From IMG/VR virus record IMGVR_UViG_3300029911_000006: DNA of 64,000 nt. One strand, written 5' to 3'. Both the position numbers and the translations under genes were made by a program. A model generated the notes under the pieces. It worked only from the letters and a program-made list of their open reading frames with translations. It did not search any database and was not told the origin of the DNA. Positions 22,270 to 52,258 of the stretch are shown one piece after another. This DNA comes from a virus (lineage: Duplodnaviria > Heunggongvirae > Uroviricota > Caudoviricetes). Numbering within the stretch: the stretch's first letter is position 1; every line of letters begins with the position of its first letter.

Positions 22270-22461
22270 TTAGCTCCAGTTGAAGAGGTTGCCACCGATG
22301 ATGATAGCACCGATGAGTACAGCGAGGACAGGACTCACCACGAAGATGCCGATGATGAACGCTGCGAAGACGAGGTAAGTCAGGGCGAAGACCACATGCT
22401 TGAGGGCTGGTGGTGTTGCCCTGACTCTTGTATGCTCGGTCTGTTCTGGAATCCAACGCAT
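22270..22461 (-). CDS. small membrane protein (63 aa)
   Basis: AGGAG Shine-Dalgarno. Hydrophobic. Confidence 0.45.
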   Translation of the reverse strand: MRWIPEQTEHTRVRATPPALKHVVFALTYLVFAAFIIGIFVVSPVLAVLIGAIIIGGNLFNWS

Positions 22462-22619
22462 TTGGAACTCCTAATTGGTTGCGTCCGGTTACATGTTCAC
22501 CGTCGCTGCCTAGTATTGTGACCCCACGCGCAGGGTATCTAGGGCACGCTCAACTCGCTCACCAGTATTTTCCTGTGGCCTACAGGTTTTTCGGTGAGTC
22601 TGTATCGCGGTAGTCAAAC

Positions 22620-23150: not shown

Positions 23151-23344
23151 ATGATTCCCCTTAGACCTTTAGCCAACCAGATAGGTAGGCGGATTTGGTA
23201 CCGTGATTCGAGAGTAGCAGCGTAGTTCTCGTCCGGCTTGTGGTAAGTGTCATTGCCGTTATAGCCTTCAGGTCGGCTGTACTGGGACTTGTAGTAAGCC
23301 CTCTGCTTGGCCTTCCGCTGCTCGGGTGTGAGTGGTTCTTTCAT
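23147..23344 (-). CDS. small basic protein (65 aa)
   Basis: Leaderless ATG after promoter copy 8. ATGA overlap with the macro gene. Confidence 0.5.
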   Translation of the reverse strand: MKEPLTPEQRKAKQRAYYKSQYSRPEGYNGNDTYHKPDENYAATLESRYQIRLPIWLAKGLRGII

Positions 23345-23405
23345 CTGTCAGCAGTATACCGGAGTCACCATCGTTCTGAACACTTATTTTGGAATTTTTT
23401 ACTGA
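23345..23405 (-). promoter_or_regulatory. conserved phage promoter, copy 8
   Basis: Minus strand reads AAAAAATTCCAAAATAAGTGTTCAGAACGATGGTGACTCCGGTATACTGCTGACAGATG. Confidence 0.65.
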
Positions 23406-23760
23406 GGAGGTCACCCGGTCGCAGGGGCGTGTAATGAGCCGCACCGTTAGTGGTGCCAGCGATGAGACGACCAACCTCAGCTGGGATGGGGTTACCGGCT
23501 TCGGTTCCTTTCGCAATTGAGTACATCGCCTTCAGACGGTCTGGAAACCGCTTACGGAACTCGTCATTTGGGTCGTCCATCGGACGCATCACGATCAGAC
23601 CTCGGTTCGTCAACGCCCTCAGCGATTCGCGGACACCTTCAGGATGCCTGCGTTTGTTTAGCCAAGTCGCCACAGTCCATCCGCTCATCTCGCCATTCTT
23701 GGCATCCGCAATCGTGGCGAGGCAGTCCTTCATCTTCTGACTCATTGGGTGGTCAGTCAT
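23365..23760 (-). CDS. hypothetical protein (about 132 aa from MTDHP)
   Basis: Track ORF. The start is uncertain (an upstream GTG is an alternative). Confidence 0.45.
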   Translation of the reverse strand: MTDHPMSQKMKDCLATIADAKNGEMSGWTVATWLNKRRHPEGVRESLRALTNRGLIVMRPMDDPNDEFRKRFPDRLKAMYSIAKGTEAGNPIPAEVGRLIAGTTNGAAHYTPLRPGDLLSKKFQNKCSERW

Positions 23761-23923
23761 GGGGTCTTCTCGCGCCTCATAAATACCTGAAAGTATGCGG
23801 TCGGACTTTCGTAAGATGTGCGGCAAATGGACACGACCCGCCACCCATTGGACTCTTCCATTGCCATTCGCGTACACATCGGCACTTCATCGGAATCCGA
23901 CAGAATCATCCACGTCCACTCGC

Positions 23924-24649
23924 TCACGATGCCACCTCTGGTTTCAGCTCAATTCCGGCGGCTGTCAACTCGCCAATCAGACTCTCGCGAGTGATCGCTT
24001 GCGGATTGTGGAATTGTCCGTCGTAGGTCCCATCGTCCTCTTCGAATTTCCGTACGCCAAATCCTTGCGCCTCCAGTTGCTGGCGGATGCTTTTCAGTGT
24101 CGTCTTGGGCGTGTAGGCGACTCGCAGAGTGTACGGTTTCGAGTGCTTCGAGAGTCCACCAAAAATCTCACCAAAGGTAACGTCAGCCTGACCATCTTCT
24201 GGGAAACTGAGACCGCGAAACCGATGAACGTAGGTGTCCATCTTCCTTAGGGTCTTGTAAAGTTTGTTGGCGAATTGCTGCTTTTCCCCCTCCCACAACA
24301 TGCGTTCTGGGATGCCGGTGATCCGGGCAAACCGCTCGTTTCCGTAGTCACACAAATCGTTTGTTCCGATGGCGCGGAGAAGTAGTCCGCTAGGATCATT
24401 CTTGCACCCATTCGCTTCGACAAAGGCTAGGACGAACGGATTTTCGTTGCGACCGACACTGGACTGACAGAGAACGAGGTCGCCCTTGTTGTACTTGGGC
24501 CGCTCAAAACCGGGTTCTTCAATCGCAATATGGCTCAGAGAATACTGGCTTGCCATGTATTGCTGAACCGCCGGTAACCGCTGGAGGGTAGCGACTTCTT
24601 GAGCGAGCATGGAAGCAATATTGAGAAGGATACGTTCACGGTCTGTCAT
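23924..24649 (-). CDS. hypothetical protein (241 aa)
   Basis: Start MTDRER is preceded by a GGGAGGAAACCGA Shine-Dalgarno. Confidence 0.5.
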   Translation of the reverse strand: MTDRERILLNIASMLAQEVATLQRLPAVQQYMASQYSLSHIAIEEPGFERPKYNKGDLVLCQSSVGRNENPFVLAFVEANGCKNDPSGLLLRAIGTNDLCDYGNERFARITGIPERMLWEGEKQQFANKLYKTLRKMDTYVHRFRGLSFPEDGQADVTFGEIFGGLSKHSKPYTLRVAYTPKTTLKSIRQQLEAQGFGVRKFEEDDGTYDGQFHNPQAITRESLIGELTAAGIELKPEVAS

Positions 24650-24833
24650 TCGGTTTCCTCCCCACCACGGTTCCACTGACACCGGCAGGGTCAGGCGGTT
24701 CGTTGTTGAAGAAATCATCGACCTCTTCCGGGACGGGGACGCCAGCGGCCTCACAGGCGTCGTAGGCTTGCTTCATCTTCTTCCACTTCGCGTCCGGGGG
24801 ACGGAAGGCTTGCACATACGTTGACAGTCCCAT
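24636..24833 (-). CDS. small protein (65 aa)
   Basis: Track ORF. Confidence 0.4.
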   Translation of the reverse strand: MGLSTYVQAFRPPDAKWKKMKQAYDACEAAGVPVPEEVDDFFNNEPPDPAGVSGTVVGRKPNDRP

Positions 24834-24848
24834 GGCTTTACCTTTCAG

Positions 24849-25154
24849 TTATGGCAGGAATCCTGCGACGATGACGGCAACAGAACCGAACAGGCCGTCG
24901 TCAATTACATCCAACGGGAACTCCGTCGTGTACGGGAGGAGGATGTCCCCGCCGTCCCCGTAGATGAGCTTCTCCAACTCTTCCTGCAACTTGTCGTGAG
25001 CCTTCTGAGCCTTCTTGGTAGCACCATCAGGCAGCACCGAGTTCATGTACACCTTGTTCAGGTGGGTGTAGTTCCCCTCAAGTACGAAGAACTTCAGTTC
25101 AGCGTCAAGCTGGTCGTAAATCAGAATGGTCTTCAGTTCACTGTTTCCGCTCAT
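24849..25154 (-). CDS. hypothetical protein (101 aa)
   Basis: Track ORF. The start is uncertain. Confidence 0.45.
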   Translation of the reverse strand: MSGNSELKTILIYDQLDAELKFFVLEGNYTHLNKVYMNSVLPDGATKKAQKAHDKLQEELEKLIYGDGGDILLPYTTEFPLDVIDDGLFGSVAVIVAGFLP

Positions 25155-25426
25155 AGTGGCTTGTCCCTCTTGATGCGGTTGTAGCCCACGAAGTGGGCAC
25201 GGGTGTAAGGTGGGAAGCACGGCATCACAGCGTATCGACTACCGCATGGGTCGCACTCGATTGTAGTCTGGCTGAACACGCAAGTTTCGGTCTTCCACGT
25301 TGATTCAATACCGCAGTCCGGGCACTGTCCTCGATTAAGAACAGCCGAGTCTAGTTCCGGCCCCCATTTGATAGGAGCCGGTGGTGCTGGTTTGCGACCA
25401 ACTAGCTTGCGGAGAAAGGTTATCAC
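25151..25426 (-). CDS. zinc-ribbon protein (CPDC...CDPC); GTG start 7 nt after TATACT
   Basis: Leaderless GTG start downstream of promoter copy 9. Confidence 0.5.
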   Translation of the reverse strand: MITFLRKLVGRKPAPPAPIKWGPELDSAVLNRGQCPDCGIESTWKTETCVFSQTTIECDPCGSRYAVMPCFPPYTRAHFVGYNRIKRDKPL

Positions 25427-25480
25427 TTAGGCCAGTATACCCCAAAGGACTTTGCACGCATAGTGGAAAAATTGGTCTTC
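25427..25480 (-). promoter_or_regulatory. conserved phage promoter, copy 9 (TATACT -10; divergent -35)
   Basis: Minus strand reads ...TGCAAAGTCCTTTGGGGTATACTGGCCTAAGTG. Confidence 0.45.
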
Positions 25481-25522
25481 ACCGAATGAAGTCCCACCAT
25501 CACACTTGACCACATCGGCAGG

Positions 25523-25569
25523 AATATACATATTTCTTTAAACGGCTTTATGGAATATGTATATTCCAT
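25523..25569. repeat. perfect 14-bp inverted repeat GGAATATACATATT-N19-AATATGTATATTCC in an AT-rich 228-nt intergenic region
   Basis: Seen directly in the sequence. A candidate operator, origin or structured RNA element. Confidence 0.6.
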
Positions 25570-34287: not shown

Positions 34288-34562
34288 TTGTTCTCTTCCT
34301 CCGGTTCAGGCTCACCGTCATCTACTTCAAGGATGACCATGTGTACTGTCTTCATCTTCTTCCCGCCGAAGCGGAGAGTAAGACGATTACCAGTCAATGT
34401 TATACCCATCGGTGTGTCCGTGGCAATAATCTTCCGCATCTCTTCAAGAGTTGCTTTGGAGTCGCCGGGGAGAGTAGGGAACTGGTAGATGTCGTGGTGC
34501 ATTATGACTCCCTCCGCCTTCCTTGACCCAACGATAAAAGATTCGGCGGGTATCTTGCTCAT
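34284..34562 (-). CDS. hypothetical protein (92 aa from MSKIP)
   Basis: Track ORF. Confidence 0.45.
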   Translation of the reverse strand: MSKIPAESFIVGSRKAEGVIMHHDIYQFPTLPGDSKATLEEMRKIIATDTPMGITLTGNRLTLRFGGKKMKTVHMVILEVDDGEPEPEEENK

Positions 34563-34649
34563 TTTATACCCCTGCTCCCAGATAAAAACCGAGTGTGTAC
34601 TGCGTGTCCACACCCGGTGGCATAGTCATAGTTTACTTGGAGGAAAACG

Positions 34650-35438
34650 CTACGCCAAAAGTTTCTTGAACATGTTGCCAAACGTCTTTGCCGACCAACC
34701 CTTCAGGTCGGACACCTGTCCGTCCCCAATCTCCACGATGCGAGTACGACCGGCTGCGTCGTAGGCTACATCCACGGAGAAGAAGGGACTGTCAATCCGA
34801 TGTGCGGCTGCTTTCAAGACTTCCTCATCCGCAGAGCGGAACCCGGAACCTACCTTACCATTCAGAATGAAGTATCGGCGTTCATCATTCAACTCTTCAT
34901 AGCGACGGATGCAGAGACCGCCTTCTAGTCCCCCACGAAACTTCTTCATCAACTCGATGCACTCCATTGCCTCGGAGGCGTCGTCGCATACAGAGCCCTT
35001 CCCCCGCGTCGTGCTGAGAGACTTGACGTAATCCTTCAGGAAGAACCGCTCCCAACCGCGAGACTTCAACAGTTCGAAAGAGTCACGCAGGTTCGCTGTC
35101 TCCAGCCACTTGTTGGTGAACACGATGGTGTCCGCCGTGTACTCGACCAGTTGCTGATACCAGTTGGGGATGTGATGGGTGTTCAGGTACTGGTCAACGC
35201 TGGTGTACAGCATCGCACCGACCGCATCAACCTTCTCCGACATCTTCAGGTACTGGTCAGCGGTAAGCATCCAGCCCCGGTACATGACAGTCTCCCCAGC
35301 CACGACCCGATGAACCCGCCCCTCTTCGAGAGAGAAGAGTGCTGAGGCATACCCATTGGAGAGTTCCACAGCCTGAGGCTTGAAGAACTCGTCCATATGG
35401 GTAGGGGTCAAAGGGTCTGCTGGGTAGATGAACTGCAT
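34650..35438 (-). CDS. hypothetical protein, tentatively ATP-grasp-like (262 aa)
   Basis: The C-terminal block VDVAYDAAGRTRIVEIGDGQVS resembles an ATP-grasp C-domain. Weak support. Confidence 0.35.
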   Translation of the reverse strand: MQFIYPADPLTPTHMDEFFKPQAVELSNGYASALFSLEEGRVHRVVAGETVMYRGWMLTADQYLKMSEKVDAVGAMLYTSVDQYLNTHHIPNWYQQLVEYTADTIVFTNKWLETANLRDSFELLKSRGWERFFLKDYVKSLSTTRGKGSVCDDASEAMECIELMKKFRGGLEGGLCIRRYEELNDERRYFILNGKVGSGFRSADEEVLKAAAHRIDSPFFSVDVAYDAAGRTRIVEIGDGQVSDLKGWSAKTFGNMFKKLLA

Positions 35439-35450
35439 GTTGTTCTCCGG

Positions 35451-36524
35451 TTAGTTGTTCAGTACGCTCTCGTCCGCTTCGCCAGCGGCAACGCGGTCTT
35501 CGAGGATACTGTTGATGACGAGACGCTCATCATCCGTCACCTTCTGGCTGTTGGTCTTGATGGCAATAAGGTGCTCAGTGGTAAGGTCAACCAGACGCTG
35601 GAAGGTCGTGGGCTGGTCGGCGAACTTCCCCTTGGTGCCCCACATCGCGACCGTCTTGGCGTAGGCCAGCCCCGCAGTGCGAACCGTGATGCCCTTGAAC
35701 TGCTTGCCGGGGATGGTGACACCTTCGAGACCGTCAATGAGGGTGCTGCTATCGCTCTTGTCCGGCGTGGTGTCATCGAAATCCTCTTCCTCGGCGATGA
35801 CTGGGAGGACTTCGGGGGCAACAGGCTGGGCTTCCTCGCTTATGAACTGAGGCTTGGCTGGTACAGCGGTGGGTGGCGGGGTGAGTGTCTCTTCCTTGGA
35901 TGAGAGCAAGCGGGAGGCCAGTGCTCCGAGACCGAGACCGGCGACGAATACGCGAAGTGAGCGGGACATAGATTTCTTCTCCTGTGGTTGTGTGCGGGTG
36001 AGTTCTAAAAACTGTACTTCCTTCTCGTGTAGCTCCGCCATGGCGATGGTGTACTCCCGCTTCATGTCGGCAAAGTTGCGGCTCAGTTCATCTCTCAGCG
36101 ATAACATCTTGCCGTCGATGAAACCGTTCAGGTGATAAGGGAAGTTGCGTTTCGCTGTCCACTTCCAATACTGGTTCTCACCCTTCTTGTAAGCAAGGTA
36201 CTGGCTCTCGAAGTCGGAGTGGTACTCGATGAACTCTCTGACCGGGCCGTCTACGACCTGCTCCACAGCCAGAATCTTGTTGATGATGTTCATGGTCTCG
36301 CGGTTGTTGGGGAGGGCATTGGTCTCCACGAAGTCCTGCCAGCCGGGGAGTTCACAGGCACCGTACGCCTTGACCTCAGGATACTTCGCTACAGCCGTGG
36401 TCACGAACGACTGGAACTCGTCGCGGCCCTTGTGCAGCTTGGCTTGCAACTCACCATACAGCCTGTAGCGGGAGCATGTGGCCTTGAGGGCCAAGATGCT
36501 GGCGGAGAAAGCTTCAGTGCTCAT
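35451..36524 (-). CDS. hypothetical protein with a central TM segment (357 aa)
   Basis: Track ORF. AGAGGGG Shine-Dalgarno. Confidence 0.5.
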   Translation of the reverse strand: MSTEAFSASILALKATCSRYRLYGELQAKLHKGRDEFQSFVTTAVAKYPEVKAYGACELPGWQDFVETNALPNNRETMNIINKILAVEQVVDGPVREFIEYHSDFESQYLAYKKGENQYWKWTAKRNFPYHLNGFIDGKMLSLRDELSRNFADMKREYTIAMAELHEKEVQFLELTRTQPQEKKSMSRSLRVFVAGLGLGALASRLLSSKEETLTPPPTAVPAKPQFISEEAQPVAPEVLPVIAEEEDFDDTTPDKSDSSTLIDGLEGVTIPGKQFKGITVRTAGLAYAKTVAMWGTKGKFADQPTTFQRLVDLTTEHLIAIKTNSQKVTDDERLVINSILEDRVAAGEADESVLNN

Positions 36525-36633
36525 TAGAAACCCCTCTTGAGACTGCCATCCGCATTATCCCGTGGGCACTCTTGTCGATGACCACCTTGGCTCCGCCCTC
36601 GTATTCGATGGTGATTTTATTTACTTGCAGCAT
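36514..36633 (-). CDS. micro-ORF (39 aa, MLQVNKITIEYEGGAKVVIDK...)
   Basis: GGAGG Shine-Dalgarno. It overlaps the next start. Confidence 0.3.
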   Translation of the reverse strand: MLQVNKITIEYEGGAKVVIDKSAHGIMRMAVSRGVSNEH

Positions 36634-36745
36634 TGACAACCTCCGGGCACAGAGACCCCTGTTGCTTGCGAGGGGCGAGAGCCGCAGCGATGATGCGTAG
36701 TGCGATTTTGGTGTTGGTGTTCATGGGTATCCTTGACAGGGCAGA

Positions 36746-36763
36746 CCGGGGCTCTCGCCCCGG
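36746..36763 (-). terminator. GC hairpin CCGGGGC-gaga-GCCCCGG directly after the Ku stop; no U-tract
   Basis: Same architecture (GAGA loop on the transcribed strand) as the hairpin at 3131..3157. Confidence 0.35.
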
Positions 36764-36778
36764 CCTTCTTGGTTGGGG

Positions 36779-37735
36779 TTACGCCGCTACAGCCTTGGCC
36801 TTCTTCGCCTTGACGGCGACGGGCTGGTTGAGCGAAGCCTGAAGCATCGCCATGACATCGACCGGGGAGGTAACAGCCGGGGCCGGAAGTGCGACCGGAG
36901 CCGGGGTGCGTCCCATAATCTTGTCGTTGATGAGGCCCTTGAAGGAGCGAGTGAAGGAATCCTCGTAGTCGGTTGCGTCGAAGTCACCCGAGAGCATGTC
37001 GATGAGCATTGCGGCCAGTTCGACCTTCTTGTCATCCACAGCGACCGTCTGCCACTTGTCGCAGGAGCGGACTTCGTTGTCGAAGTACATGTAGTGAACG
37101 ACCATGCCGTTCGTGCCGTAGGGACGGATGACGACGGTCTGCTCACGACCACGCTGTGCGGTCTGAGCGATGGCTACGACGCCACGGCCAACCATGGCTG
37201 CACGGAGGGTGCTGAACGTCTCTTCGAAGCCTTTGTCGGGAACGAGGTACTCAGCATCCGCGAAGTAGATGGGGTCGATGGAAGTCATCTTGACGAACTT
37301 CTCCACGGTCATGCGCTTGTCTGAGATAACAGAGCAGCCCTTCTTCTCGTCATCGCTGATGATGGCGAACTCGCCCTTGGCGTACTGGTAGCCCTTGAGG
37401 ATGTTGGTGCCTTCAACGGTCTCGTTGCAGGTCGGGCAGGACATACCTGCACGCTTCAACTGAGTGTAGATGGGCGTCATACCCGTCTTGTCCGAGTTGC
37501 AGTGATGTACCTGATTGAGTTCCACCTTCTCTTCCTCGGTGGCCTTCAGGGTCTTGACGGTGAGATTGACCAGCCCGAAGCCAAGGACGCCAGTCCACGT
37601 TGCACGGTTGGCGATACCCTTCTCGGCGGGGGCGGTGCTAATCTGCGGCTTGGCTGAGGCAGCGGGTGCCACCAGAGCAGCAGAGAGGGAGGCGATGGAG
37701 GCGGGGGCGGTAGGAGTGGTAATCTTCTTTGCCAT
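36779..37735 (-). CDS. ku: Ku protein (bacterial NHEJ DNA-end-binding protein) homolog
   Basis: N-terminal RATWTGVLGFGLVNLTVKTLKA matches the bacterial Ku motif. QVHH...C...CPTC aligns with the Cys-containing segment of some bacterial Ku proteins. Leaderless start after promoter copy 12. Confidence 0.8.
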   Translation of the reverse strand: MAKKITTPTAPASIASLSAALVAPAASAKPQISTAPAEKGIANRATWTGVLGFGLVNLTVKTLKATEEEKVELNQVHHCNSDKTGMTPIYTQLKRAGMSCPTCNETVEGTNILKGYQYAKGEFAIISDDEKKGCSVISDKRMTVEKFVKMTSIDPIYFADAEYLVPDKGFEETFSTLRAAMVGRGVVAIAQTAQRGREQTVVIRPYGTNGMVVHYMYFDNEVRSCDKWQTVAVDDKKVELAAMLIDMLSGDFDATDYEDSFTRSFKGLINDKIMGRTPAPVALPAPAVTSPVDVMAMLQASLNQPVAVKAKKAKAVAA

Positions 37736-37800
37736 ACACACAGTATACCGGAGTGAACACGTTTTCGAACAACTAATTTTGAAGTTTTTCGCCTATTTTC
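37735..37800 (-). promoter_or_regulatory. conserved phage promoter, copy 12 (drives ku)
   Basis: Minus strand reads GAAAAACTTCAAAATTAGTTGTTCGAAAACGTGTTCACTCCGGTATACTGTGTGTATG. Confidence 0.65.
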
Positions 37801-37930
37801 AGCTTGAAAAGGGGAAGGGGAACCTTGGCAGGTTCCCCGTGTTGCCTCAACCCTTTGAGCCACCTAAGACCCGCCAGTGACTCTTCCTAAGGCACGACCC
37901 GGAGAGAAGGTTCAGGCCGTGCCTAGCTTG

Positions 37931-39208
37931 TTAGTAATCGTCGTCTTCGTCGTCATCATCCAACTCCGAGTCATCTTCATCCTCGTAGTCGTCGTCCGAG
38001 TCATCGAACTCGTCATCGTACTCGTCGTCATCTTCCACGTCCGAGTCGTCAACAGCGTAGTAGCCGTTATCCAGCGGGAAGTTGTATCCCCGGAGGGTAG
38101 CGATAGCCATGAGAATCTTGTCGATGGTCTCCTGCTCAGGGTGCAGGGCACGCTCAGCGTTGTAGACCTCAGAGAGCTTCATGTCAGCAGCCTTGGCAAC
38201 TTCCCCCAAGGTCTTGCCAGCAGCCTCACGGTGGAAGCGGAGAGGGTTCGCGAACAACTTGGACTGTGCCGGGGCAATGTCCATCCGCGAGAAGCGACGG
38301 AGCCAGTTCTTGAGACGAGCGACCGATGCCTTCTTGAAGCTGGCGGAAGTCATCTTGCCACGCTTCAGGAGACGCTTGACGCTCGGCAGGGCCTTGACCT
38401 GCTTGATGAGTTCCTGACGGTCACCCGAGAGTTCCACGACAGGCTGCATCATGACCGGAGTGTCGGTGCGACCTTCAATCATCTCGTTGTACTCGACCTC
38501 ACGCAGAACCTCGTAACGCCACGTGCGACCCTTGGAGTAGCCGTAGTCCACCGGGATGGCAACAACGTCAGCCGGGTTGACCTTGACTTCCACAATGCGG
38601 CTCCCACCTTCACGCCACGCACTGCCGAAGTTGGGCAGGTACGCCTTAGAGCAGAAGTGGAGACCACGGGAGCACTCGCGACGACGGTCAGGGTCAACAG
38701 CCTTGCGTGGCATAACCACTGGGGGACGGCCCGGACGGTTGTCGAAGCGACCCGTGCGGATGTCCATGAAGTTGTTCCGAACCTTCTTGTAGGCGAGGAA
38801 GCAGCCGTCGTCGGTCAGGGCGAAGCGACCATTGCTCAGCCACTCGTAGACCTCGTTGACGGTATCCGCATCCGGGTTCAGGTACAGATTGTCCATGAAG
38901 CGGAGTAGGTGGGCGACAGGCTTGCCGTGCTCGATGAGTTCGAGAACCTTGGTCGTCAGCACGTTCTCAACCTTCTGACCCTTGTAGGTCACGCCGTCAG
39001 CAGTGACGTTGACCTTACCGTGCGAACGCTCGGCAATCTGAGTCGCCAGCGAGAGCAGCTTCGGTACTCGCGAGAAGTTCTCACGCGACAGTGCCTTGTG
39101 CAGAGCCTTGAATGTTGGTTGACCCTTGCTCACAGGGTAGCTACGGCCACCGACTACCACGGATAGGTAATCGTTCTGGAGCACGTATGGAATCGCTTGG
39201 CTAGGCAT
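37931..39208 (-). CDS. rIIB-like protein (putative) with a long acidic C-terminal tail
   Basis: It lies immediately downstream of the rIIA-like gene and is coupled to it (T4 rIIA-rIIB order). GAGGAG Shine-Dalgarno. Confidence 0.4.
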   Translation of the reverse strand: MPSQAIPYVLQNDYLSVVVGGRSYPVSKGQPTFKALHKALSRENFSRVPKLLSLATQIAERSHGKVNVTADGVTYKGQKVENVLTTKVLELIEHGKPVAHLLRFMDNLYLNPDADTVNEVYEWLSNGRFALTDDGCFLAYKKVRNNFMDIRTGRFDNRPGRPPVVMPRKAVDPDRRRECSRGLHFCSKAYLPNFGSAWREGGSRIVEVKVNPADVVAIPVDYGYSKGRTWRYEVLREVEYNEMIEGRTDTPVMMQPVVELSGDRQELIKQVKALPSVKRLLKRGKMTSASFKKASVARLKNWLRRFSRMDIAPAQSKLFANPLRFHREAAGKTLGEVAKAADMKLSEVYNAERALHPEQETIDKILMAIATLRGYNFPLDNGYYAVDDSDVEDDDEYDDEFDDSDDDYEDEDDSELDDDDEDDDY

Positions 39209-41705
39209 TGACAGTCTCCTCTTCCTCTTCAGTTTCCGCTACCAATTGTACATCATCCGAAGATACCGCCAACTTTTTATTTTGCTCGTCAGCGTACCGG
39301 ATGTAGTCCACGAGAACATTGTTCTCTTGGATGTTGCTATCGTGGTACCGATTCCTGTTGCATACCCTCAGAATCGGATAGTGCCTGATAACCTTCGCCC
39401 AAAGCTTGTTGAAGTCGGTGTCGTTGTGTACTTCAACTCCAAGTGCAGTGGCTACCTTCAGCAACTCGTAGTGACCGTCCCGGTTCGCCTTCTGTGCGTT
39501 GTTCAGGATAGTAGCGAAGAGACGGATGGGGCTGTCAATTGCCAGTACCTGATGAGTAGCGATGTACTCAAGCAGGGTCGCCCACTCAGAGCTAAACGGG
39601 TTGACCGTAAGGCTCATCTCCCGTTCCTTCTCCGGCGTGACGAGAGTCTTTATCTCCGCCTGAAGGTAGGGCATAAGGGCGACGAACGAGGAGTCATTCA
39701 GCAGGGGAGAGTCGGAGCGGAGGCCGAACACCGGGGTATCCTCCGTGAACTCTGCAAATACCTTGGACTTCCTCATGCTGTTGGCGAACTCCACGAAGTC
39801 ACGAGCGGAGGAATGCTCTCCATGGTTGCGTGTGGCCTCACCGAACTTGTCCACCAGAATGTAGAACTTCTTCGTGGATGCGTCGATGAAATCCAGAGTG
39901 TCTTCGCCTCTGTCCCAAGCCTTCCGCCAGCCCGACGACCGGTTGCCCCAGCGACGGTACCGCAAATAGCCGACGTAGGTCTTCAGGACACGAGCCTGAA
40001 TCTTCTTCCGGCGTGCCTGTGCAACCTTAGCTTCCTTCGCTTCCTTCATGAGAGGGTCGTACTTCACCTTCAGGTCAGAGACCTTCAGGAAGGGAGGATT
40101 GCCAAGGGACTCAAGCAGGTCAGCCGCCTCATCGCCAGCCCGTTGCATCTGCACCAGCTTGTGAGCCTTGCTGATGACGATGGCACGCTCGTACTCGTTG
40201 GTCTCGTCCTGCTGAAGCAAGTAGTTGATGTACTTCTCGCCGTAGTTGTTGATGTCGTTGATGACGAAGATGCTGTTCTTCGAAACCGAAATCTTGACAT
40301 CGAACTCAGACTTCTTCGACAGGCCCGATGCCACGTCACGAAGAGCCTGAGCACGCTTGGCAGTGTCCACAGCCTCGAACATGTTTATCTTGCTGGACTT
40401 GCCCCGCTTGCGTTCCGTACGAGCGTACTCCGCCATGTTGATGAAGTTGTAGTCGAGTTCGTTGACAGTAGGCTTGGCCCCGGTCAGAGTGAAGTTGGTG
40501 TACTTGCCGAACAGGAGACCCTTGCTGTAGGCGTCGTGAACGAGTGAGCCCACGCCGCTCTGCAACTGAAGCTCCATCAGCTTGAGCCGTGCTTCCCAAC
40601 CTGAGAAGCACAAATCCAGATTCTTCTTGACCTCTTCCATCAGGTGCTCTTCCACGATGTCGAGCCGCTTCAGAATGTTGCCGATGGTGGTGTCATCAAG
40701 TTGCAGGGCCTCACGCGAGACAGCCGGACGCAGGTCGCCGATGTTGAAGAACAGGTCGATGGGCATTGCGACCATCTTCTTCTGTGCTTCCGTCAGACGG
40801 CTGATGTCGATGTTGCCGACAGTGTACTGCACGTTGCCCATGATGGCCCGGAGACCGTTGGAGTCGTTTCGCATTCCCCATGTATCCGTACGCACGGAGT
40901 AGTTGGACTTGAGAATCACGACGGACTTGTTCATCTTCGGCTGAGGGTCGAAGAACTCGAACACGATGCCAGCCTTGTTCTCGAACTCCCAAATGTCGTT
41001 AGGGTCAACGGGAAACTGAACCTCTACGCCATTGGACTCTTTGGGTGTGTCCGTGACCGTCATCAGAACCACAGCCGGGATGCCATTCTTCACGTGAGCA
41101 TCGTAGATGTAGGTCTTGCCTTCGTAGACATTGGTAACCGTGAAGCCGCCAGACTTGTAGGAGCCGTCAGCGAGACGCTTGTTGGTGTAGGCGAAGGGGG
41201 ACTTGGAGCCGAGACCGAAGCCACCAATCATGTCGTCGGAGTTGTTTTTGTCCGAAGAGAAGTAGGTGCAGTAGAGACGCTTGCACGCATCATAGTCGCC
41301 AGTACCATCGCAGGTACCGCACTTGATGTCGCCACGTGTGGGCTCATAGGACTCTAAGGTTGTGTCGTCATCGGTGGGTGTGATGGCGTTCAGCTTGCCA
41401 GTGCCATTGCACTCCAAGCACCCACCCTTGACGTACTTGAGGCCGGTGCCAAAGTCTTTGACTGAGAAGTAGGGTTCCCACTGGGTGGGGAGATGAATCT
41501 CAAAGGGGACATTCGCTTTACCCGCCGCAATGTGCGAGTCAAGAGCGTTGCAGGAAAGCTCCCGGATAGGGGCACGGTAGATGTCGTTGTAGATGCTGCT
41601 GGACATGATGTTGAAGCTGACAGAGTTTGCGACCATCTTGAAATCGGTGGCAACTCCCGCTGTTCCAGAGACCTTAGCGTCAATTCCTTTATGTCCAAGT
41701 TGCAT
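39201..41705 (-). CDS. rIIA-like protein (GHKL/Bergerat-fold ATPase)
   Basis: N-box IRELSCNALDSHIAAG, G1 DFGTGL and G2 GGFGLGSKS, plus the size and the rIIA-rIIB arrangement. It also has a Cys cluster CLECNGTGK...KCGTCDGTG. Confidence 0.7.
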   Translation of the reverse strand: MQLGHKGIDAKVSGTAGVATDFKMVANSVSFNIMSSSIYNDIYRAPIRELSCNALDSHIAAGKANVPFEIHLPTQWEPYFSVKDFGTGLKYVKGGCLECNGTGKLNAITPTDDDTTLESYEPTRGDIKCGTCDGTGDYDACKRLYCTYFSSDKNNSDDMIGGFGLGSKSPFAYTNKRLADGSYKSGGFTVTNVYEGKTYIYDAHVKNGIPAVVLMTVTDTPKESNGVEVQFPVDPNDIWEFENKAGIVFEFFDPQPKMNKSVVILKSNYSVRTDTWGMRNDSNGLRAIMGNVQYTVGNIDISRLTEAQKKMVAMPIDLFFNIGDLRPAVSREALQLDDTTIGNILKRLDIVEEHLMEEVKKNLDLCFSGWEARLKLMELQLQSGVGSLVHDAYSKGLLFGKYTNFTLTGAKPTVNELDYNFINMAEYARTERKRGKSSKINMFEAVDTAKRAQALRDVASGLSKKSEFDVKISVSKNSIFVINDINNYGEKYINYLLQQDETNEYERAIVISKAHKLVQMQRAGDEAADLLESLGNPPFLKVSDLKVKYDPLMKEAKEAKVAQARRKKIQARVLKTYVGYLRYRRWGNRSSGWRKAWDRGEDTLDFIDASTKKFYILVDKFGEATRNHGEHSSARDFVEFANSMRKSKVFAEFTEDTPVFGLRSDSPLLNDSSFVALMPYLQAEIKTLVTPEKEREMSLTVNPFSSEWATLLEYIATHQVLAIDSPIRLFATILNNAQKANRDGHYELLKVATALGVEVHNDTDFNKLWAKVIRHYPILRVCNRNRYHDSNIQENNVLVDYIRYADEQNKKLAVSSDDVQLVAETEEEEETVNA

Positions 41706-41719
41706 TGGGTGTCTTCTCT

Positions 41720-41785
41720 CCTGCACACAGTATACGGGATACTCCCACATTCTGAACATATATTTTGGAAAAATTTGCCTACAGT
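41720..41785 (-). promoter_or_regulatory. conserved phage promoter, copy 13 (drives rIIA)
   Basis: Minus strand reads AAATTTTTCCAAAATATATGTTCAGAATGTGGGAGTATCCCGTATACTGTGTGCAGGAGAG. Confidence 0.65.
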
Positions 41786-42030
41786 GTATAGAACAACTTA
41801 CGTCGGTTTTCCACATGCCGCTTGATGACGTGGGCCAGCAACAAATTGTACCCAGTACGAGCTATGAGAGCACTCATACCGCAGTAAATGGGCATCATCC
41901 ATGGGATGTTGTGGTTGAGCAGACGGGCCGCTATCAACACTAAGGTGCCGGGTACACTGGCGAGGAACCAGCCGTAGTAGAACCCGAGTTGCAATGCTTC
42001 AAACCGGCTTACTCTAATTTTCCCTTGCAT
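41779..42030 (-). CDS. small membrane protein (83 aa)
   Basis: Hydrophobic track ORF. Confidence 0.5.
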   Translation of the reverse strand: MQGKIRVSRFEALQLGFYYGWFLASVPGTLVLIAARLLNHNIPWMMPIYCGMSALIARTGYNLLLAHVIKRHVENRRKLFYTL

Positions 42031-42762: not shown

Positions 42763-44265
42763 TTAGTTTTCTTGCGCTACTTCGGCGTCCACATCATCTT
42801 CGTAGACGGTGTTCTCGATGTGTGCCAAGTCTTCAGTGGTCAACCCCTCTTCCACCTGAGTGGTAGCATGGTCGAACATGCCAAGATTCGCTGCCTCGTC
42901 CATGTAGTTGTTGTACTGTTCTTCCTCAACCACGAAGTCAGGGTCAGTGAACACCGGGGTGAGGATCGAGTAGAGCTTATTCATCTTCATCCGCAGTTCG
43001 TTGTCCTGATTCTCGTGACCGCTGAGACGCTCGGCTTCGGCCCACAGCATGAACAGTTCCTGCTTGAGCGGGTTCTTCAGCACGGCTTCCATGATGGTGG
43101 CGTGTGGGTCAAGCTGCACGTCAACCTCAGGTTCGGTGTACTGATTGATGGGCTGAAGCTCACCGGAGATAAGCTTGTCGAACGTGTTGTGAGCCTTGGT
43201 TGATGCCGTCGAAAGCTGCTCGGCTTGACGCTCTTCCACTGAACGACCGTCAGCCTTGATGCTTTTCACGTAATTGAGCACGAGACCTGAGACCACATGC
43301 AGGAACCCAAACCAATTGGTGCTGGGGTCAATAACGAGGGCACCATATTGCGGAGGATTGTACACGAGACGGAGGATGTGGTCACGCTCTGCGTCGGTGA
43401 GCGTAGGGCCGTCACCCAACTCTTCCTTGAGCACCTTGTGGAAGCCGGTCTGCCGGAGAATCTTTGCAGCGGTCGCACGCAACACGGCACGCTGAGTGAG
43501 GGCCTTCTCCAAGATGTCTACTTCGAGAAACACGTGAGGCACAACACCACGAGTCTGAAGTTCCTCTGTGTCAAGCACGTCGCCCGTGTCGAGTTCAATG
43601 TAGACGTTCGAGAGAGGAGTGACCGCGTAGTCAGCGATGAGACCCAGCAGGTCAGAACGGAACAGGTCGAACAGACGCTGTGCAACCCCGTTCGGCTTGC
43701 CTTCCCGGTTGAAGTAGTTGGGGCACTCTTGCCGGATGATGTCCCACACCATATCATCAGGAGCATCTTTGACGTTACGCGGCTGTAGTTCGTTGATGTA
43801 TTTGTTGAGGTCACATCCGCAAGTGTCGCCGGTCGGGTACTTCACCATGTCCGGGAAGAGACGGCTGATGTACCAGTTGCGTAGGGGACAGGATTCGTCG
43901 GGGTGAGAGATGACGTAGTAGAAGTACCGTCCCTCACCTAGTGTCTCAGAGTATTGTTCAAGGTCAGCGATGGTGGACGTGAAGGTGCCGTCCGATGAGA
44001 TGTACTGCTTGCCCACCATGGCATCGCCTCCGAACACAGCACGACGGTTGATGATAAAAGCGTCTTCAATGATGGCAAAACGCGGGTCGTGAATCATCTC
44101 CCATGTGGGGCCAAGGGTCTCGATGTAGCCGTCTTTGCCGAACAACAGAGCATCGAGTGACTGACAATACTGAAATTCATCACGTGTGACTTCGCCTGAA
44201 ACGAAGCGGTATGTTCGCTTACCTTCATCTGTAAGACCCAACATACGCTTGAGGGAATTATCCAT
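42763..44265 (-). CDS. hypothetical protein (500 aa)
   Basis: Long ORF with no recognisable motif. Confidence 0.55.
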   Translation of the reverse strand: MDNSLKRMLGLTDEGKRTYRFVSGEVTRDEFQYCQSLDALLFGKDGYIETLGPTWEMIHDPRFAIIEDAFIINRRAVFGGDAMVGKQYISSDGTFTSTIADLEQYSETLGEGRYFYYVISHPDESCPLRNWYISRLFPDMVKYPTGDTCGCDLNKYINELQPRNVKDAPDDMVWDIIRQECPNYFNREGKPNGVAQRLFDLFRSDLLGLIADYAVTPLSNVYIELDTGDVLDTEELQTRGVVPHVFLEVDILEKALTQRAVLRATAAKILRQTGFHKVLKEELGDGPTLTDAERDHILRLVYNPPQYGALVIDPSTNWFGFLHVVSGLVLNYVKSIKADGRSVEERQAEQLSTASTKAHNTFDKLISGELQPINQYTEPEVDVQLDPHATIMEAVLKNPLKQELFMLWAEAERLSGHENQDNELRMKMNKLYSILTPVFTDPDFVVEEEQYNNYMDEAANLGMFDHATTQVEEGLTTEDLAHIENTVYEDDVDAEVAQEN

Positions 44266-47875: not shown

Positions 47876-48433
47876 TTACCAAATCAGGTTATGCAGATTG
47901 AGGTACTTGGCGGGAACCGTGTCAGTCAGCCACACGCCATTAGGGGCAAGATAGAAGGATAAACCCTCTTCATGCATTGCGGCTGCATCGACAGGTACCA
48001 CTATAGGGTTACCATGTCGCGACCCTACTGTCCGTGCGGTGTCACACAGAGCGGAAAGATGGACGTGCTGCCGCTTGCCCTTGAGCAAGCCCTGCTTTTT
48101 GATTGAGTCGAGAAACCGGGTGGCGGTTCCGTGGTAGAGAATGCCGGGAGGGATAACGACCTCGTACTTCAGGTCTACCTCAATACTGTGACCTTGCACG
48201 GCCCGGATAGATTTTCCGTCGTCCGAGAACTGGAACCGCTTCTTGTCGTTGTCTTCCACGACTTCATCGAGTTCCTCGCGATTGATTTTATATCCCTTAC
48301 TCGCCAGACCAGTCAACAGGTTGGATACGGTACACCAACCATCTGAAGTAAGAGTGAGGGAAGCCTCTTCAGGTTTATGCCGGAGTACAAGACTCATGAA
48401 CCTGCTCGTTCGGACTAGGGCTTTGTTATCCAT
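47876..48433 (-). CDS. kptA: RNA 2'-phosphotransferase Tpt1/KptA
   Basis: Near-colinear match to E. coli KptA: SRFMSLVLRHKPE, DKKRFQFSDDGKSIRAVQGHS, LYHGTATRFLDSIKKQGL, HVHLS, NGVWLT. Confidence 0.9.
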   Translation of the reverse strand: MDNKALVRTSRFMSLVLRHKPEEASLTLTSDGWCTVSNLLTGLASKGYKINREELDEVVEDNDKKRFQFSDDGKSIRAVQGHSIEVDLKYEVVIPPGILYHGTATRFLDSIKKQGLLKGKRQHVHLSALCDTARTVGSRHGNPIVVPVDAAAMHEEGLSFYLAPNGVWLTDTVPAKYLNLHNLIW

Positions 48434-49322: not shown

Positions 49323-49409
49323 TGGTGACCCCGGCAGGATTCGAACCTGCGATGTGCTTTCACACGCGAGTTTAGGAAACTCGTGCCTTGTCCGCTAGAC
49401 TACGGGGTC
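49323..49409 (-). tRNA. tRNA with anticodon CCU (Arg) but a 16-nt class-II-type variable arm; A73
   Basis: Hand-folded: acceptor GACCCCG/CGGGGTC, D GTCT/AGGC, anticodon stem CGAGT/ACTCG with loop TTCCTAA, variable CGTGTGAAAGCACATC, T-arm GCAGG-TTCGAAT-CCTGC, CCA encoded. Confidence 0.65.
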
Positions 49410-49425
49410 AAACTTGTATTCTACT

Positions 49426-49680
49426 CTACAACCAATGCTTCAGGTAGTTGTCTGGGAACTTATTCTTGGAGCGAACCTCGGTGATGTCCGCTTCCGGGTC
49501 GCCCAACTTATCCAGAGCTACCAAGTCTTCAGCCAGACCGGCACGGTGACGGCTGTGAATGAACTTCTTCAGCCCTGCGGTGTTGCGGCGTTCGCCCTTC
49601 TTGCCGCAGCAAAAGTCGGCTCCCATCGCTGGGGGAAACTTCTCAGCCTTGAACCCGCGTTGGTGATTCGTCTTGCTCAT
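49426..49680 (-). CDS. hypothetical protein (84 aa)
   Basis: GGAGAGG Shine-Dalgarno. Confidence 0.5.
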   Translation of the reverse strand: MSKTNHQRGFKAEKFPPAMGADFCCGKKGERRNTAGLKKFIHSRHRAGLAEDLVALDKLGDPEADITEVRSKNKFPDNYLKHWL

Positions 49681-50020
49681 CGTCCTCTCCAGCTACTTCC
49701 TTGAGCGTATCCATGAAGTCCACCGGCTTCCAGCCAGCCGCTTCCATAATCTCCGGGAACGTACCGTTCGCCTTCTCCGTGGGAACAACCACCCACTCAC
49801 ATGCACAACCCGGCCACAGGCTGGGGAATATGCCTTGGTTCTCCATCTCCTCGGTCATCTCCACGCCGTCGAGAGCCGCCTGTCGGTCTTGCTTACACGA
49901 TCCACACATCCCAGCGAAGATGTACTCTTCTGCTGCTTCTTGAGACTCAAAGCCGGAGCGGGATGGGTTGGGCTCGTCAGATTCTCGTGCCGGGAGGTAC
50001 AGTGCGGAAAAATCAGGCAT
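49643..50020 (-). CDS. hypothetical acidic protein
   Basis: Track ORF. The start is uncertain. Confidence 0.35.
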   Translation of the reverse strand: MPDFSALYLPARESDEPNPSRSGFESQEAAEEYIFAGMCGSCKQDRQAALDGVEMTEEMENQGIFPSLWPGCACEWVVVPTEKANGTFPEIMEAAGWKPVDFMDTLKEVAGEDDEQDESPTRVQG

Positions 50021-50240
50021 TCGTATCACCAATCAGGTACAGGTTATTGTCGCTCGACCCACAAACTGCGATGCCGTCCAGATACCACTTACACTCTTGA
50101 GACCCGATGGTGCCGACCAGCCGGGGGCACTCTTCAAAATCCACCATGTGAAGGCTCGTTACCCTGCGCCCGTCCATTGTCTCCGCCTCGGTGATCCCTC
50201 GTGTCGGCACTACCACCGTACTTACATCTAGGTTATTCAT
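50013..50240 (-). CDS. hypothetical protein (75 aa from MNNLD)
   Basis: The track ORF was trimmed to avoid the tRNA-like gene. Confidence 0.4.
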   Translation of the reverse strand: MNNLDVSTVVVPTRGITEAETMDGRRVTSLHMVDFEECPRLVGTIGSQECKWYLDGIAVCGSSDNNLYLIGDTNA

Positions 50241-50252
50241 ACTAGCTAATAC

Positions 50253-50335
50253 TGGAGGGCGCGACAGGATTCGAACCTGCATTTTCAATTCCACTTACGT
50301 TTAACGACTTAGAAGGTCGCCTCGATTACACACCC
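50253..50335 (-). tRNA. tRNA-like gene with an Arg(UCU)-type anticodon arm; atypical or degenerate D region
   Basis: Clear T-arm GCAGG-TTCGAAT-CCTGT and CCA. Acceptor GGGTGTG/CGCGCCC with two G-U pairs. Anticodon arm GCGAC-CTTCTAA-GTCGT is identical to the tRNA at 56750..56825. The D arm is too short. Confidence 0.4.
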
Positions 50336-50341
50336 CAAAGG

Positions 50342-50539
50342 TTACGCTGCGATGTCTGTGGTTCTCTCGTTCTTGGATGACCTTACACACATCTTGGGTG
50401 CGTGAGACACGTTGACGAACGTGTCCCACTTCCCTTTGCACGCACACGTGTTGGGGTCTACCTTGTGCTCATCATCGCCCAGCAAGTCCTGCAACTTGGT
50501 CTGGCCGAAGAGCATACGTACGATAGGTGTGATAAACAT
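50342..50539 (-). CDS. small protein (65 aa)
   Basis: AGGAGAA Shine-Dalgarno. Confidence 0.5.
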   Translation of the reverse strand: MFITPIVRMLFGQTKLQDLLGDDEHKVDPNTCACKGKWDTFVNVSHAPKMCVRSSKNERTTDIAA

Positions 50540-50587
50540 ATGTGTTCTCCTGTCAGTTGAATTCGTTTATAATGCGTGGATGAAACA

Positions 50588-50809
50588 TCAGGATGCCTTG
50601 ACGAAGGTCCCGCCATCCAGAGCCTTGCGAATGTACCGCATGAGAGTAATGGCCTTCTCGGTTGAGTTCAAGGTGGCTCCGCCAATGTCTTCGAGCGAGA
50701 CGGGAAAGGCATATTCGACGCCATCCACCGTTACGTTGTAAAAGGCGTTACCCGTCCTATAGAACGAAAACCTTGCGGTGTTGTCCTTCACAATCTTCTT
50801 GATGTCCAT
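50588..50809 (-). CDS. hypothetical protein (73 aa from MDIKK)
   Basis: AGGAAGGATG Shine-Dalgarno. Confidence 0.45.
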   Translation of the reverse strand: MDIKKIVKDNTARFSFYRTGNAFYNVTVDGVEYAFPVSLEDIGGATLNSTEKAITLMRYIRKALDGGTFVKAS

Positions 50810-50885
50810 ATGCTCATCCTTCCTTTCAGTTTGACTACTCAGCCATGCAGCTTTGTCTAGACCTATGCCTCGGTCTGAGTGGCTT

Positions 50886-51104
50886 CTAACGATGTCCCTT
50901 ATCTCCGACACTCATGACTCCTTCAACGTACTGCTCTTGCAGATACCTGTCTACTTCTTGGTCAATCTCAGCCATGGACTTCATGATGAACGCTTCGGTT
51001 TCGAGGTCACCACGGTTATGGGCTTCAGCCGCCTTGTCCATCATGCTCGACTTTACGTAGGCCCGGATTTCTTCGAAGAGAGAGATTTTGTTTGCGTCTG
51101 CCAT
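50886..51104 (-). CDS. hypothetical protein (72 aa)
   Basis: Track ORF. Confidence 0.45.
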   Translation of the reverse strand: MADANKISLFEEIRAYVKSSMMDKAAEAHNRGDLETEAFIMKSMAEIDQEVDRYLQEQYVEGVMSVGDKGHR

Positions 51105-51157
51105 ACTCTCTAATACGGAGACTCAGGGGAGTCTTACGACTCCCCCTCGTGATTGCC

Positions 51158-51727
51158 CTAGTGGTCGAGTTCTACGTTCCAGTAAGCCCAAGATGCCTTT
51201 TCAGCGTACAACCACTGCTGCCACTCAGTCCACTCAGGCCGAATCTGCTTGATGTGGAGTTTGAAATTGAACTTCGGGTCGTCAACCTTCGGTACGAACG
51301 GCTGACGGAGCAGCGGCATACGAGCCTGTTCAGGCGTCATGCCAGCCTTCGCCTTGTTGCAGCGAGAGCAAGCGGCTACGACGTTAGTCCAGACAGTGAT
51401 ACCACCCTGACACCGGGGCTTGACGTGCTCCACCTGAAACTCCTGAGTGGAGACGTGCTTACCGCAGTATTGGCAAGTACCCTCGTCACGCATGTAGATG
51501 TTGCGACGAGAACACGGAACAGCAAGGCGACGACGCTTGTGCCAAGCGTTCTTTACCTGAATGACACGGGGCATACCCATCTCGAAAGAAGGGCTGCGAA
51601 GCATCCGCCCACCCTCATCTTCCTTGACGATGTTAGCGCGGTCTTCCCAGTACAGCTTGACCGCATTCTTCCAACTCATGAAGCCAACCGGCTTCCAGTT
51701 TATGTCCAAAACGAGAGTGTCATTCAT
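51158..51727 (-). CDS. HNH endonuclease (McrA-like)
   Basis: CQYCGK...EHVKPRCQGG...NVVAACSRCNKAK. Confidence 0.7.
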   Translation of the reverse strand: MNDTLVLDINWKPVGFMSWKNAVKLYWEDRANIVKEDEGGRMLRSPSFEMGMPRVIQVKNAWHKRRRLAVPCSRRNIYMRDEGTCQYCGKHVSTQEFQVEHVKPRCQGGITVWTNVVAACSRCNKAKAGMTPEQARMPLLRQPFVPKVDDPKFNFKLHIKQIRPEWTEWQQWLYAEKASWAYWNVELDH

Positions 51728-51820
51728 AGAACGCTCCTATCACCTAATGCTGTTTCATGTTGTCCCCCTTGCACGGGTGGGTTCTCGCGAACCCTTCTTC
51801 GGATGGTGTTGCAACTACAG

Positions 51821-52252: not shown

Positions 52253-52258
52253 AAGTTT

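Follow-up and report, generated by a model that had tools for sequence, protein, structure and literature searches.

The 64,000-nucleotide stretch of DNA analysed here (IMG/VR record IMGVR_UViG_3300029911_000006, hereafter the window) is part of an uncultured phage genome of ~432 kb. It encodes both a bacterial-type Ku protein (36779..37735, minus strand) and a small ATP-dependent DNA ligase (20034..20843, minus strand). We consider it rather probable that the phage carries these as a two-gene DNA end-joining module, with the functional coupling of Ku and ligase inferred from sequence comparisons. The main evidence that the two work jointly is the recurrence of the Ku-ligase linkage in diverged phage contigs, one group of which has the genes in an operon. 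To our knowledge, all phage Ku proteins described so far are from actinobacteriophages, and these are understood to rely on the LigD of their host; the finding extends phage Ku biology beyond these phages.

Ku and the small ATP-dependent ligase

The Ku gene encodes 318 aa from an ATG start and was assigned with curated profiles, solved structures and the N-termini of homologues. A mechanical list of open reading frames (ORFs) gives it as 36779..37741 on the minus strand, starting from a GTG. The ATG at 37735 (MAKK...), which is also the start chosen in the original prediction made for this DNA, lies exactly 6 nt past a -10 promoter element and agrees with the N-termini of the homologues. The protein has a bacterial-type core, a conserved N-terminal extension of ~45 aa and a basic C-terminal tail (KAKKAKAVAA). 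It is matched by the Pfam Ku profile (PF02735; 119 bits, E 3e-34, cutoff 25), by the NCBIfam Ku_bact model over profile positions 1-259 of 259 (TIGR02772; 193.5 bits, curated cutoff 150) and by the PHROG family 'Ku-like DNA end binding' (E 5e-37). Among solved bacterial Ku structures it matches 9vnq (E 9e-31) and 8v53 (E 5e-23); the latter, presumably M. tuberculosis Ku, is named only 'Ku' in the output.

The core motif of bacterial Ku that we used as a criterion is W-x-G-x-I/L-x-F-G-L-V-x-I/L-P/T-V-K. The N-terminal WxGxxxFGLVN motif of the window protein (WTGVLGFGLVNLTVK) and its CxxC pair both align to 9vnq and 8v53, which bears out the canonical N-terminus and Cys-containing loop reported in the original prediction; its Ku assignment stands up to the curated profiles. 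No match to the Gam family was obtained in the Pfam and NCBIfam scans. By sequence, the product of 36779..37735 is a bacterial-type Ku.

The ligase gene encodes 269 aa with a nucleotidyltransferase (NTase) and an OB domain, and Pfam DNA_ligase_A_M (PF01068) matches the protein with 58 bits against a gathering score of 26.2. In a family alignment of 25 sequences, motif I was found as K32-H-N-G-H-R (KHNGHR), motif III as FVIDGEL, motif IV as EGIVSK, motif V as KLKFWK and motif VI as R245-x-D-K, and motif IIIa was present as well. These sequences show little or no variation at D80/E82, D92, E149/G150 and K170/K172, and R245-x-D247-K, which is part of the OB domain, is invariant in all 25. The alignment recovered every motif that had been listed for this protein at the outset (I, III, IV and V) and added motif VI and the OB domain to them.

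Searched against PDB, a profile built from 25 homologues recovered no proteins other than DNA ligases, namely archaeal ligases, the ligase domain of M. tuberculosis LigD (1vs0) and LIG1/3/4. The family profile was required for this, as phmmer with the ligase sequence alone gave no match in PDB. The AlphaFold2 (AF2) model has a predicted local distance difference test (pLDDT) score of 94.4, its top 50 Foldseek matches are all DNA ligases, and it superposes on DNA-bound LIG1 and LIG3 with a query-normalised TM-score (TMq) of about 0.75. Pfam gave no WGR match in the window ligase, which begins ~30 aa ahead of motif I. By profile, predicted fold and motifs, the protein appears to be a catalytically complete two-domain ATP-dependent DNA ligase.

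The best NCBIfam match of the ligase is the NHEJ (non-homologous end joining) ligase domain model TIGR02779. Membership of LigD was nevertheless rejected, as the scores are 78 bits against a cutoff of 227.75 for this model and 71.5 bits against 373.2 for TIGR02776, and no primase-polymerase (POL) or phosphoesterase (PE) domain is present.

Ku-ligase linkage in phages and WGR-ligases in bacteria

IMG/VR was scanned with profiles of the Ku and ligase families, and all loci fetched (given here by their L numbers) were then searched locally with hmmsearch. About 8 diverged phage lineages encode a Ku and a ligase of the short family on the same strand, within 0-16 kb of each other, and the Ku proteins of lineages with a linked ligase are down to 25% identical to the window Ku. 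Ku is followed directly by the ligase with a gap of 10 bp in L025-L027, L029, L033, L034 and the gene-called L040-L042 (up to 149 kb). In this ~149-kb group the operon runs from Ku (335 aa) to the ligase (256 aa), two small ORFs (68 and 61 aa), a protein of the A1S_2505 family (127 aa) and a 78-aa ORF (L040-L042). Larger distances, again on the same strand, are 3 kb in L010/L028, 5.6 kb in L007/L008, 8 kb in L015 (a 463-kb contig), 8.6 kb in L016 and 11.4 kb in L018/L019 (a 456-kb contig), where the ligase was recovered by extending the first locus. Genetic linkage of Ku to an ATP-dependent ligase, which is a criterion for a two-component NHEJ system, is thus seen both as adjacency and, in 6 further lineages that include the window, over 3-16 kb.

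Ku was also found next to other ligases. On a viral contig with 69% G+C (L020, 9767..12498) it lies directly beside a ligase of a different type, 468 aa long, with an N-terminal BRCT domain followed by DNA_ligase_A_M and A_C domains, and in L017 a longer, divergent ligase is found 8.6 kb from Ku. The huge-phage relatives of the window share the gene order rIIA-rIIB-Ku, a 184-aa protein, the A1S_2505 protein and then an R2K ATP-grasp protein and the ligase. The collapsed Ku-ligase operon in a group of phages without the rII block, together with the non-orthologous ligase of L020, argues for functional coupling of the two proteins.

No ATP-dependent ligase was detected near Ku in L009, L011-L014, WXIN or MT838252 with an unfiltered hmmsearch (E<=1). 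In a collection of 50,697 phage records none matched both the window Ku and the ligase, so no cultured phage in that collection has both. We found no description in the literature of phages encoding both Ku and a ligase, and in the main comparative survey of jumbo phages Ku appears only in the reference list.

The ligase-linked phage Ku proteins carry an N-terminal extension of 25-70 aa that ends in a T-P-E/D-K-K-like motif. A conserved form of it (…LSAxL…KPxLSTAPAEK…) is seen in the window and in L007, L009, L010, L014, L015, L016, L018 and L041, and the extension is absent from the solved bacterial Ku structures, L012, L013, the mycobacteriophage WXIN and MT838252. A short ligase lies within 16 kb of Ku in seven of the nine lineages with the extension and in none of the six without it. 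We hypothesise that the extension is a candidate docking peptide.

When a single genome of each GTDB species was scanned, 59 bacterial proteins proved to be related to the ligase, with 27-34% identity, spread over Planctomycetota, Verrucomicrobiota, Lentisphaerota, Mycolicibacterium, Armatimonadota and others. Four of them were scanned with Pfam, and all four have a WGR domain above the gathering score (26-35 bits vs 22); three of these proteins are about 370-390 aa long, and the fourth is an ORF of 462 aa. ORF extents suggest that most of the other relatives have a comparable N-terminal extension. These proteins correspond to the 'NT-OB_2-WGR' group, noted as uncharacterised by Williamson and Leiros (2020; PMC7470946). 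Such minimal ligases, fused to WGR where scanned, are widespread in bacteria (L079 at 9635..10792, L044, L054, L097 and 55 others within L044-L102).

Among cellular sequences, the bacterial WGR-ligases are nearest to the phage ligase, with which they share the catalytic core. They differ from it in their N-terminal WGR domain (where scanned) and in their surroundings. Ku lies within 10 kb at just one of the 59 bacterial loci, so the ligase family as a whole is not Ku-associated, while the phage ligase has no WGR domain and is linked to Ku. As WGR is found in cis where Ku is missing, and Ku is found nearby where WGR is missing, we infer that Ku may give in trans the break recognition that WGR gives in cis. 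If the module is real, Ku in trans and WGR in cis may be two interchangeable means of locating breaks, and it would give a plausible role to the catalytic core of the bacterial WGR-ligases, which have been noted in the literature and not characterised.

Promoter class and neighbouring genes

A bipartite promoter, TGTTCAGAA-N11-CCGGTATACT-N6-ATG, stands directly ahead of both Ku and the ligase, and the two upstream regions can be aligned as TGTTC(A/G)-N16-GGTATACT-N6-ATG. The Ku promoter at 37742..37771 (minus strand) consists of TGTTCG (37766..37771), an 18-nt spacer and TATACT (37742..37747), with 6 nt to the ATG at 37735, and immediately upstream of it an A/T-rich, UP-like stretch extends to about 37796. 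The ligase promoter at 20850..20879 (minus strand) has TGTTCA (20874..20879) and TATACT (20850..20855), again with 6 nt to the ATG at 20843, and shows 0 mismatches to the consensus. The predicted promoter is sigma70-like with an A/T-rich upstream element. Since the -10 element lies 6 nt from the ATG, transcription would start at or next to the start codon, which implies a leaderless mRNA.

The window has 9 copies of the octamer GGTATACT where 0.83 would be expected, and every one of them is on the minus strand. With up to three mismatches allowed, TGTTCAGAA-N11-CCGGTATACT occurs at 10 sites, likewise all on the minus strand, against 0.00 expected. These sites, with their A/T-rich upstream element, are at 2138, 2901, 7405, 9346, 9689, 20850, 23353, 27048, 37742 and 41729 (span 2138..41758). 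At the sequence level, the claim that Ku and ligase each have their own copy of a conserved leaderless promoter therefore holds. In the distant relative L015, too, Ku and ligase each follow their own cccgTATACT-N6/8-ATG.

At eight of the ten sites the ATG after the -10 element opens a long ORF, 6 nt away in seven cases and 8 nt away in one. The genes opened in this way are Ku, the ligase, a CCA-adding enzyme, a PARP, a small ORF leading a macrodomain-like gene, and three others. The promoter resets the starts of the PARP (7398) and the CCA-adding enzyme (2131) and probably that of rIIA (~41705). The rIIA promoter (41729..41758, minus strand) is of the same bipartite class, but rIIA has a leader and a Shine-Dalgarno sequence. 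Its presence under this promoter suggests that the class is early.

Past the Ku stop codon, at a distance of 15 nt, there is a perfect 7-bp GC-rich hairpin without a U-tract (36746..36763, minus strand; CCGGGGC-GAGA-GCCCCGG), which is possibly a terminator or a stabiliser of the RNA 3'-end. The region originally flagged begins at 36746 because the hairpin starts there.

The identical ligase protein is encoded by a contig of 431,749 bp and by metagenome contigs from JGI and ENA, which appear to come from peat or bog samples according to the names of the samples and the metagenome-assembled genomes. The window has a G+C content of 54%, with nearly every gene on the minus strand. A megablast search of 36000..40000 against the 50,697 phage records gave no match, so the phage is without a close sequenced relative there. 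Its sole cultured relative detectable via several proteins is Tunturi_5, a 308-kb jumbo phage of Tunturiibacter (Acidobacteriota).

The genes rIIB (37931..39208) and rIIA (39201..~41705) lie directly upstream of Ku on the minus strand (block 37931..41816), and the order rIIA-rIIB-Ku is kept in relatives. Two R2K-clade ATP-grasp proteins are encoded at 34650..35438 and 52799..53716 (both minus strand). Homologues of the first are found immediately upstream of the ligase in L016/L024 and ~1.4 kb before it in L018/L019. A 184-aa protein to which no function has been assigned (33733..34287, minus strand) is kept downstream of Ku in at least six related lineages, and its homologues lie between Ku and the ligase wherever a ligase was found. 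A 500-aa protein without a family match (42763..44265, minus strand) is kept upstream of the rIIA-rIIB-Ku block in at least six related lineages and has a homologue in Tunturi_5 (29% identity over 92% of its length). An 861-aa protein encoded between Ku and the ligase (30698..33283, minus strand) combines the shoulder domain of major vault protein (87.5 bits) with vault repeats, which is unusual for a phage; a relative in L021 is 55% identical. A methionine aminopeptidase-type M24 peptidase is also encoded in the window.

The PARP-like ADP-ribosyltransferase (5908..7398, minus strand; 496 aa) has its start set by the promoter at 7405..7434. The PARP catalytic domain was recognised in it with 69 bits, and it contains a WGR motif (TTWGRVG) as well as an H-Y-E triad. 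The original prediction had remarked that Ku and ligase co-occur with a break-sensing PARP and had drawn a parallel to eukaryotes, where Ku and PARP compete at DNA ends. The PARP is indeed present and shares the promoter class; yet a BLASTP search of all window ORFs against all related loci found no PARP homologue near Ku or the ligase in any of them. As the PARP is not kept near these genes, the Ku/PARP analogy stays speculative.

The A1S_2505-family protein (22620..23150, minus strand; NF049995, 118.5 bits; phrog_2072) has a macrodomain fold and is a conserved neighbour of the ligase in relatives. In the window it follows a 65-aa ORF (23147..23344) behind a promoter of the same class (23353..23382). 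Its AF2 model has a pLDDT of 86, with YmdB, TARG1 and Poa1p as the best Foldseek matches, and some GenBank annotators have independently called homologues 'macro domain protein' or 'ADP-ribosylglycohydrolase'. The protein may be an ADP-ribose hydrolase that counters ADP-ribosylating defences. The fold of the family, also named 'phage non-structural protein', is closest to DarG, TARG1 and Poa1p; the L041 copy is at 11155..11538. Genes for NAMPT and NUDIX proteins (NAD+ salvage) are found ~8 kb upstream of the Ku-ligase-macrodomain operon (1..2157 in L040/L042 and 1..139 in L041), and L041 has a phage integrase in the same region.

A set of RNA-repair genes is present on the minus strand. It comprises the CCA-adding enzyme (833..2131), a fusion of an HNH endonuclease and an Rnl2-type RNA ligase (13620..14645), a Tpt1/KptA 2'-phosphotransferase (47876..48433) and an RlaP nucleotidyltransferase (60361..61347), and this toolkit probably counters tRNA-cleaving defences of the host. 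The region 49323..58408 (minus strand) holds 17 tRNA genes with multiple copies for Lys, Asn, Arg and Gln; some of the genes, at 87-91 nt, exceed the usual length, and one anticodon was not determined. Two HNH-type endonuclease genes are located within this cluster (54584..55270 on the minus strand and 56883..57533 on the plus strand).

Proposed mechanism, alternatives and known systems

In the mechanism that we propose, Ku and the ligase would be transcribed early by the host RNA polymerase as leaderless mRNAs. A Ku homodimer would thread onto double-stranded DNA ends of the phage, which could be the termini of the injected genome or breaks made by host nucleases, and would shield these ends from exonucleases and bridge them. 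The small ligase, lacking a break-sensing domain of its own, would be brought to the Ku-held ends, with the N-terminal extension of Ku or its basic C-terminal tail as a possible contact, and would seal them with ATP, which would make a host LigD unnecessary. It may in addition seal nicks when the phage replicates. If this is true, large phages that infect hosts without NHEJ could still circularise or join their DNA there or withstand defences based on nucleases. With only 587 codons in total, Ku and the ligase would also be a candidate end-joining system of very small size for CRISPR-assisted genome editing of bacteria without NHEJ.

The original prediction had called the two genes a self-contained NHEJ-like pair. 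Both genes are phage-encoded and the pairing recurs in diverged phages, while the self-containment is inferred, and several observations weigh against a dedicated end-joining module. No polymerase or nuclease end-processing module was found to accompany Ku and the ligase, and no primase-polymerase or phosphoesterase domain was found among the scanned window ORFs or the operon neighbours in L026, L040 and L041. In the window the two genes are 16 kb apart on the same strand, with separate promoters and no operon. Part of the linkage is inherited synteny, as much of it is seen among syntenic relatives, and the conserved block also holds rIIA, rIIB, the ATP-grasp protein and unassigned genes. L009 and L014 have a Ku with the N-terminal extension and no ligase within 10 kb, and L032 has a short ligase and no Ku within 10 kb. 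Tunturi_5 has no Ku, yet it encodes a related ligase of 380 aa, surrounded by genes for helicase, dUTPase and thymidylate synthase, so that the ligase family can work without Ku. No second DNA ligase was seen in the 64-kb window, so the small ligase may also be the general ligase of the phage, and in jumbo phages an ATP-dependent ligase, usually one per phage, is a common part of the replication machinery (PMC7824862). The distance and separate promoters, the mixed conserved block, Tunturi_5 and the apparent single ligase would fit two separate functions as well. Ku alone would then shield phage DNA ends from RecBCD-type nucleases much as Gam does, the ligase would be a replicative or general nick-sealing enzyme, and their proximity would be a feature of a conserved early region. 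Such a division is possible, if on the unlikely side; against it stand the 10-bp gap between Ku and ligase in the unrelated ~149-kb phages without the rII block and the different type of ligase beside Ku in L020. The contrast in domain content also speaks against it: the Ku-linked ligases that were examined have no WGR domain, and 58 of the 59 loci of the bacterial relatives, WGR-bearing where scanned, have no Ku.

The neighbouring genes allow for more elaborate schemes. Ku and the ligase could reseal DNA within an ADP-ribosylation circuit in which the WGR-containing PARP marks and the DarG/TARG1-like macrodomain protein erases ADP-ribose. The PARP, the macrodomain operon, Ku and the ligase share a promoter class, the macrodomain gene is a conserved ligase neighbour in several relatives, and in L040-L042 it lies inside the Ku-ligase operon with NAMPT and NUDIX genes ~8 kb upstream. 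The same promoter class, however, also drives unrelated genes such as that of the CCA-adding enzyme, and no related locus has a PARP near Ku or the ligase. The A1S_2505 family was found in 397 phage records and in none of the 87 records that match the window Ku, and is thus not Ku-dependent. As the family is widespread in phages without this Ku, we give the circuit a low probability. A fuller version, in which the PARP as writer, the macrodomain protein as eraser, Ku as end binder and the ligase as sealer make up a eukaryote-like break response under one early leaderless promoter class, is in our view improbable. The same holds for the idea that the phage would use this response to sense, mark, unmark and reseal breaks or ADP-ribosyl lesions caused by host defences. 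It would also be a long shot that the Ku N-terminal peptide is a docking site replacing a WGR domain lost by the ligase, which would then descend from WGR-ligases.

A further reservation, which touches the end-joining module itself, concerns motif I of the ligase. K32, G35 and R37 are conserved, but 24 of the 25 family members have Asn instead of the canonical Asp (KxNG, not KxDG), and on this ground one might take the protein for a capping enzyme, an RNA ligase or a relative without activity. Some homologues get weak Pfam RNA_ligase or mRNA_cap_enzyme matches, and RNA-repair genes abound in the window. On the other side, the protein has the Arg of KxxGxR, a residue typical of DNA ligases and capping enzymes, together with motif VI and the OB domain. 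All catalytic residues other than the motif I Asp are invariant across the 25 sequences, and the ligase therefore seems to have been selected for activity. The effect of changing this Asp depends on the enzyme: the Chlorella virus ligase mutant D29A is dead on an adenylated substrate, and the equivalent LigIV mutant is proficient (PMC6035275). The window moreover already encodes a separate, bona fide RNA ligase at 13620..14645 (PF09414, 90 bits). Profile and fold searches recovered DNA ligases only, by which an identity as RNA ligase or capping enzyme was rejected, and we regard it as highly improbable that the protein is anything other than an active DNA ligase.

A joint end-joining function of Ku and ligase, which we continue to favour, can be compared with several known systems. 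Like the window Ku, the Gam protein of phage Mu is a phage-encoded, Ku-related binder of DNA ends. The window protein differs from it in being a true Ku by PF02735 and TIGR02772, in having no Gam match and in having a ligase partner. Among minimal ATP-dependent ligases, Lig C, Lig E and the Chlorella virus ligase share with the window ligase the NTase and OB domains and the lack of a separate DNA-binding domain, and the Lig E structure 6gdr is among its Foldseek fold matches. Lig E and T7 ligase are nonetheless distant from it in the profile search (28.6 and 18.6 bits). The KxNG form of motif I sets the window ligase apart from these minimal enzymes, and it has no N-terminal extension able to hold a periplasmic signal of the Lig E type (no signal-peptide predictor was used).

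The Ku and LigD systems of M. tuberculosis and B. subtilis resemble the window genes in their homodimer-type, single-domain Ku with a basic C-terminal tail and in the linked ATP-dependent ligase, and the LigD ligase domain model is the best curated-profile match of the window ligase. This ligase is, however, a 269-aa NTase and OB core without primase-polymerase and phosphoesterase domains and scores 78 bits where the LigD model asks for 228. The genes also belong to a phage, and the window Ku has the extra conserved N-terminal extension.

The closest parallel within phages is the Ku of Corndog and Omega. Pitcher et al. reportedly found in 2006 that Ku-assisted NHEJ in these phages depends on the LigD of the host. 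Known phage Ku proteins come from mycobacteriophage clusters O and J and from one Streptomyces phage (PMC11936186), and NHEJ aided by its own Ku appears to be how Corndog, whose genome ends in 4-base overhangs, recircularises it after infection (PMC4351075). Circularisation of this type goes with very short cohesive ends; the termini of the phage genome studied here lie outside the window. The Ku proteins of Corndog and Omega are, like that of the window, phage-encoded and of the bacterial type, and they are 26-30% identical to it. In the Omegavirus WXIN no ligase is annotated and no match to the short-ligase profile was found within about 9-12 kb of Ku. The difference lies in the partner of Ku, a ligase that is encoded by the phage itself both here and in about 8 related lineages.

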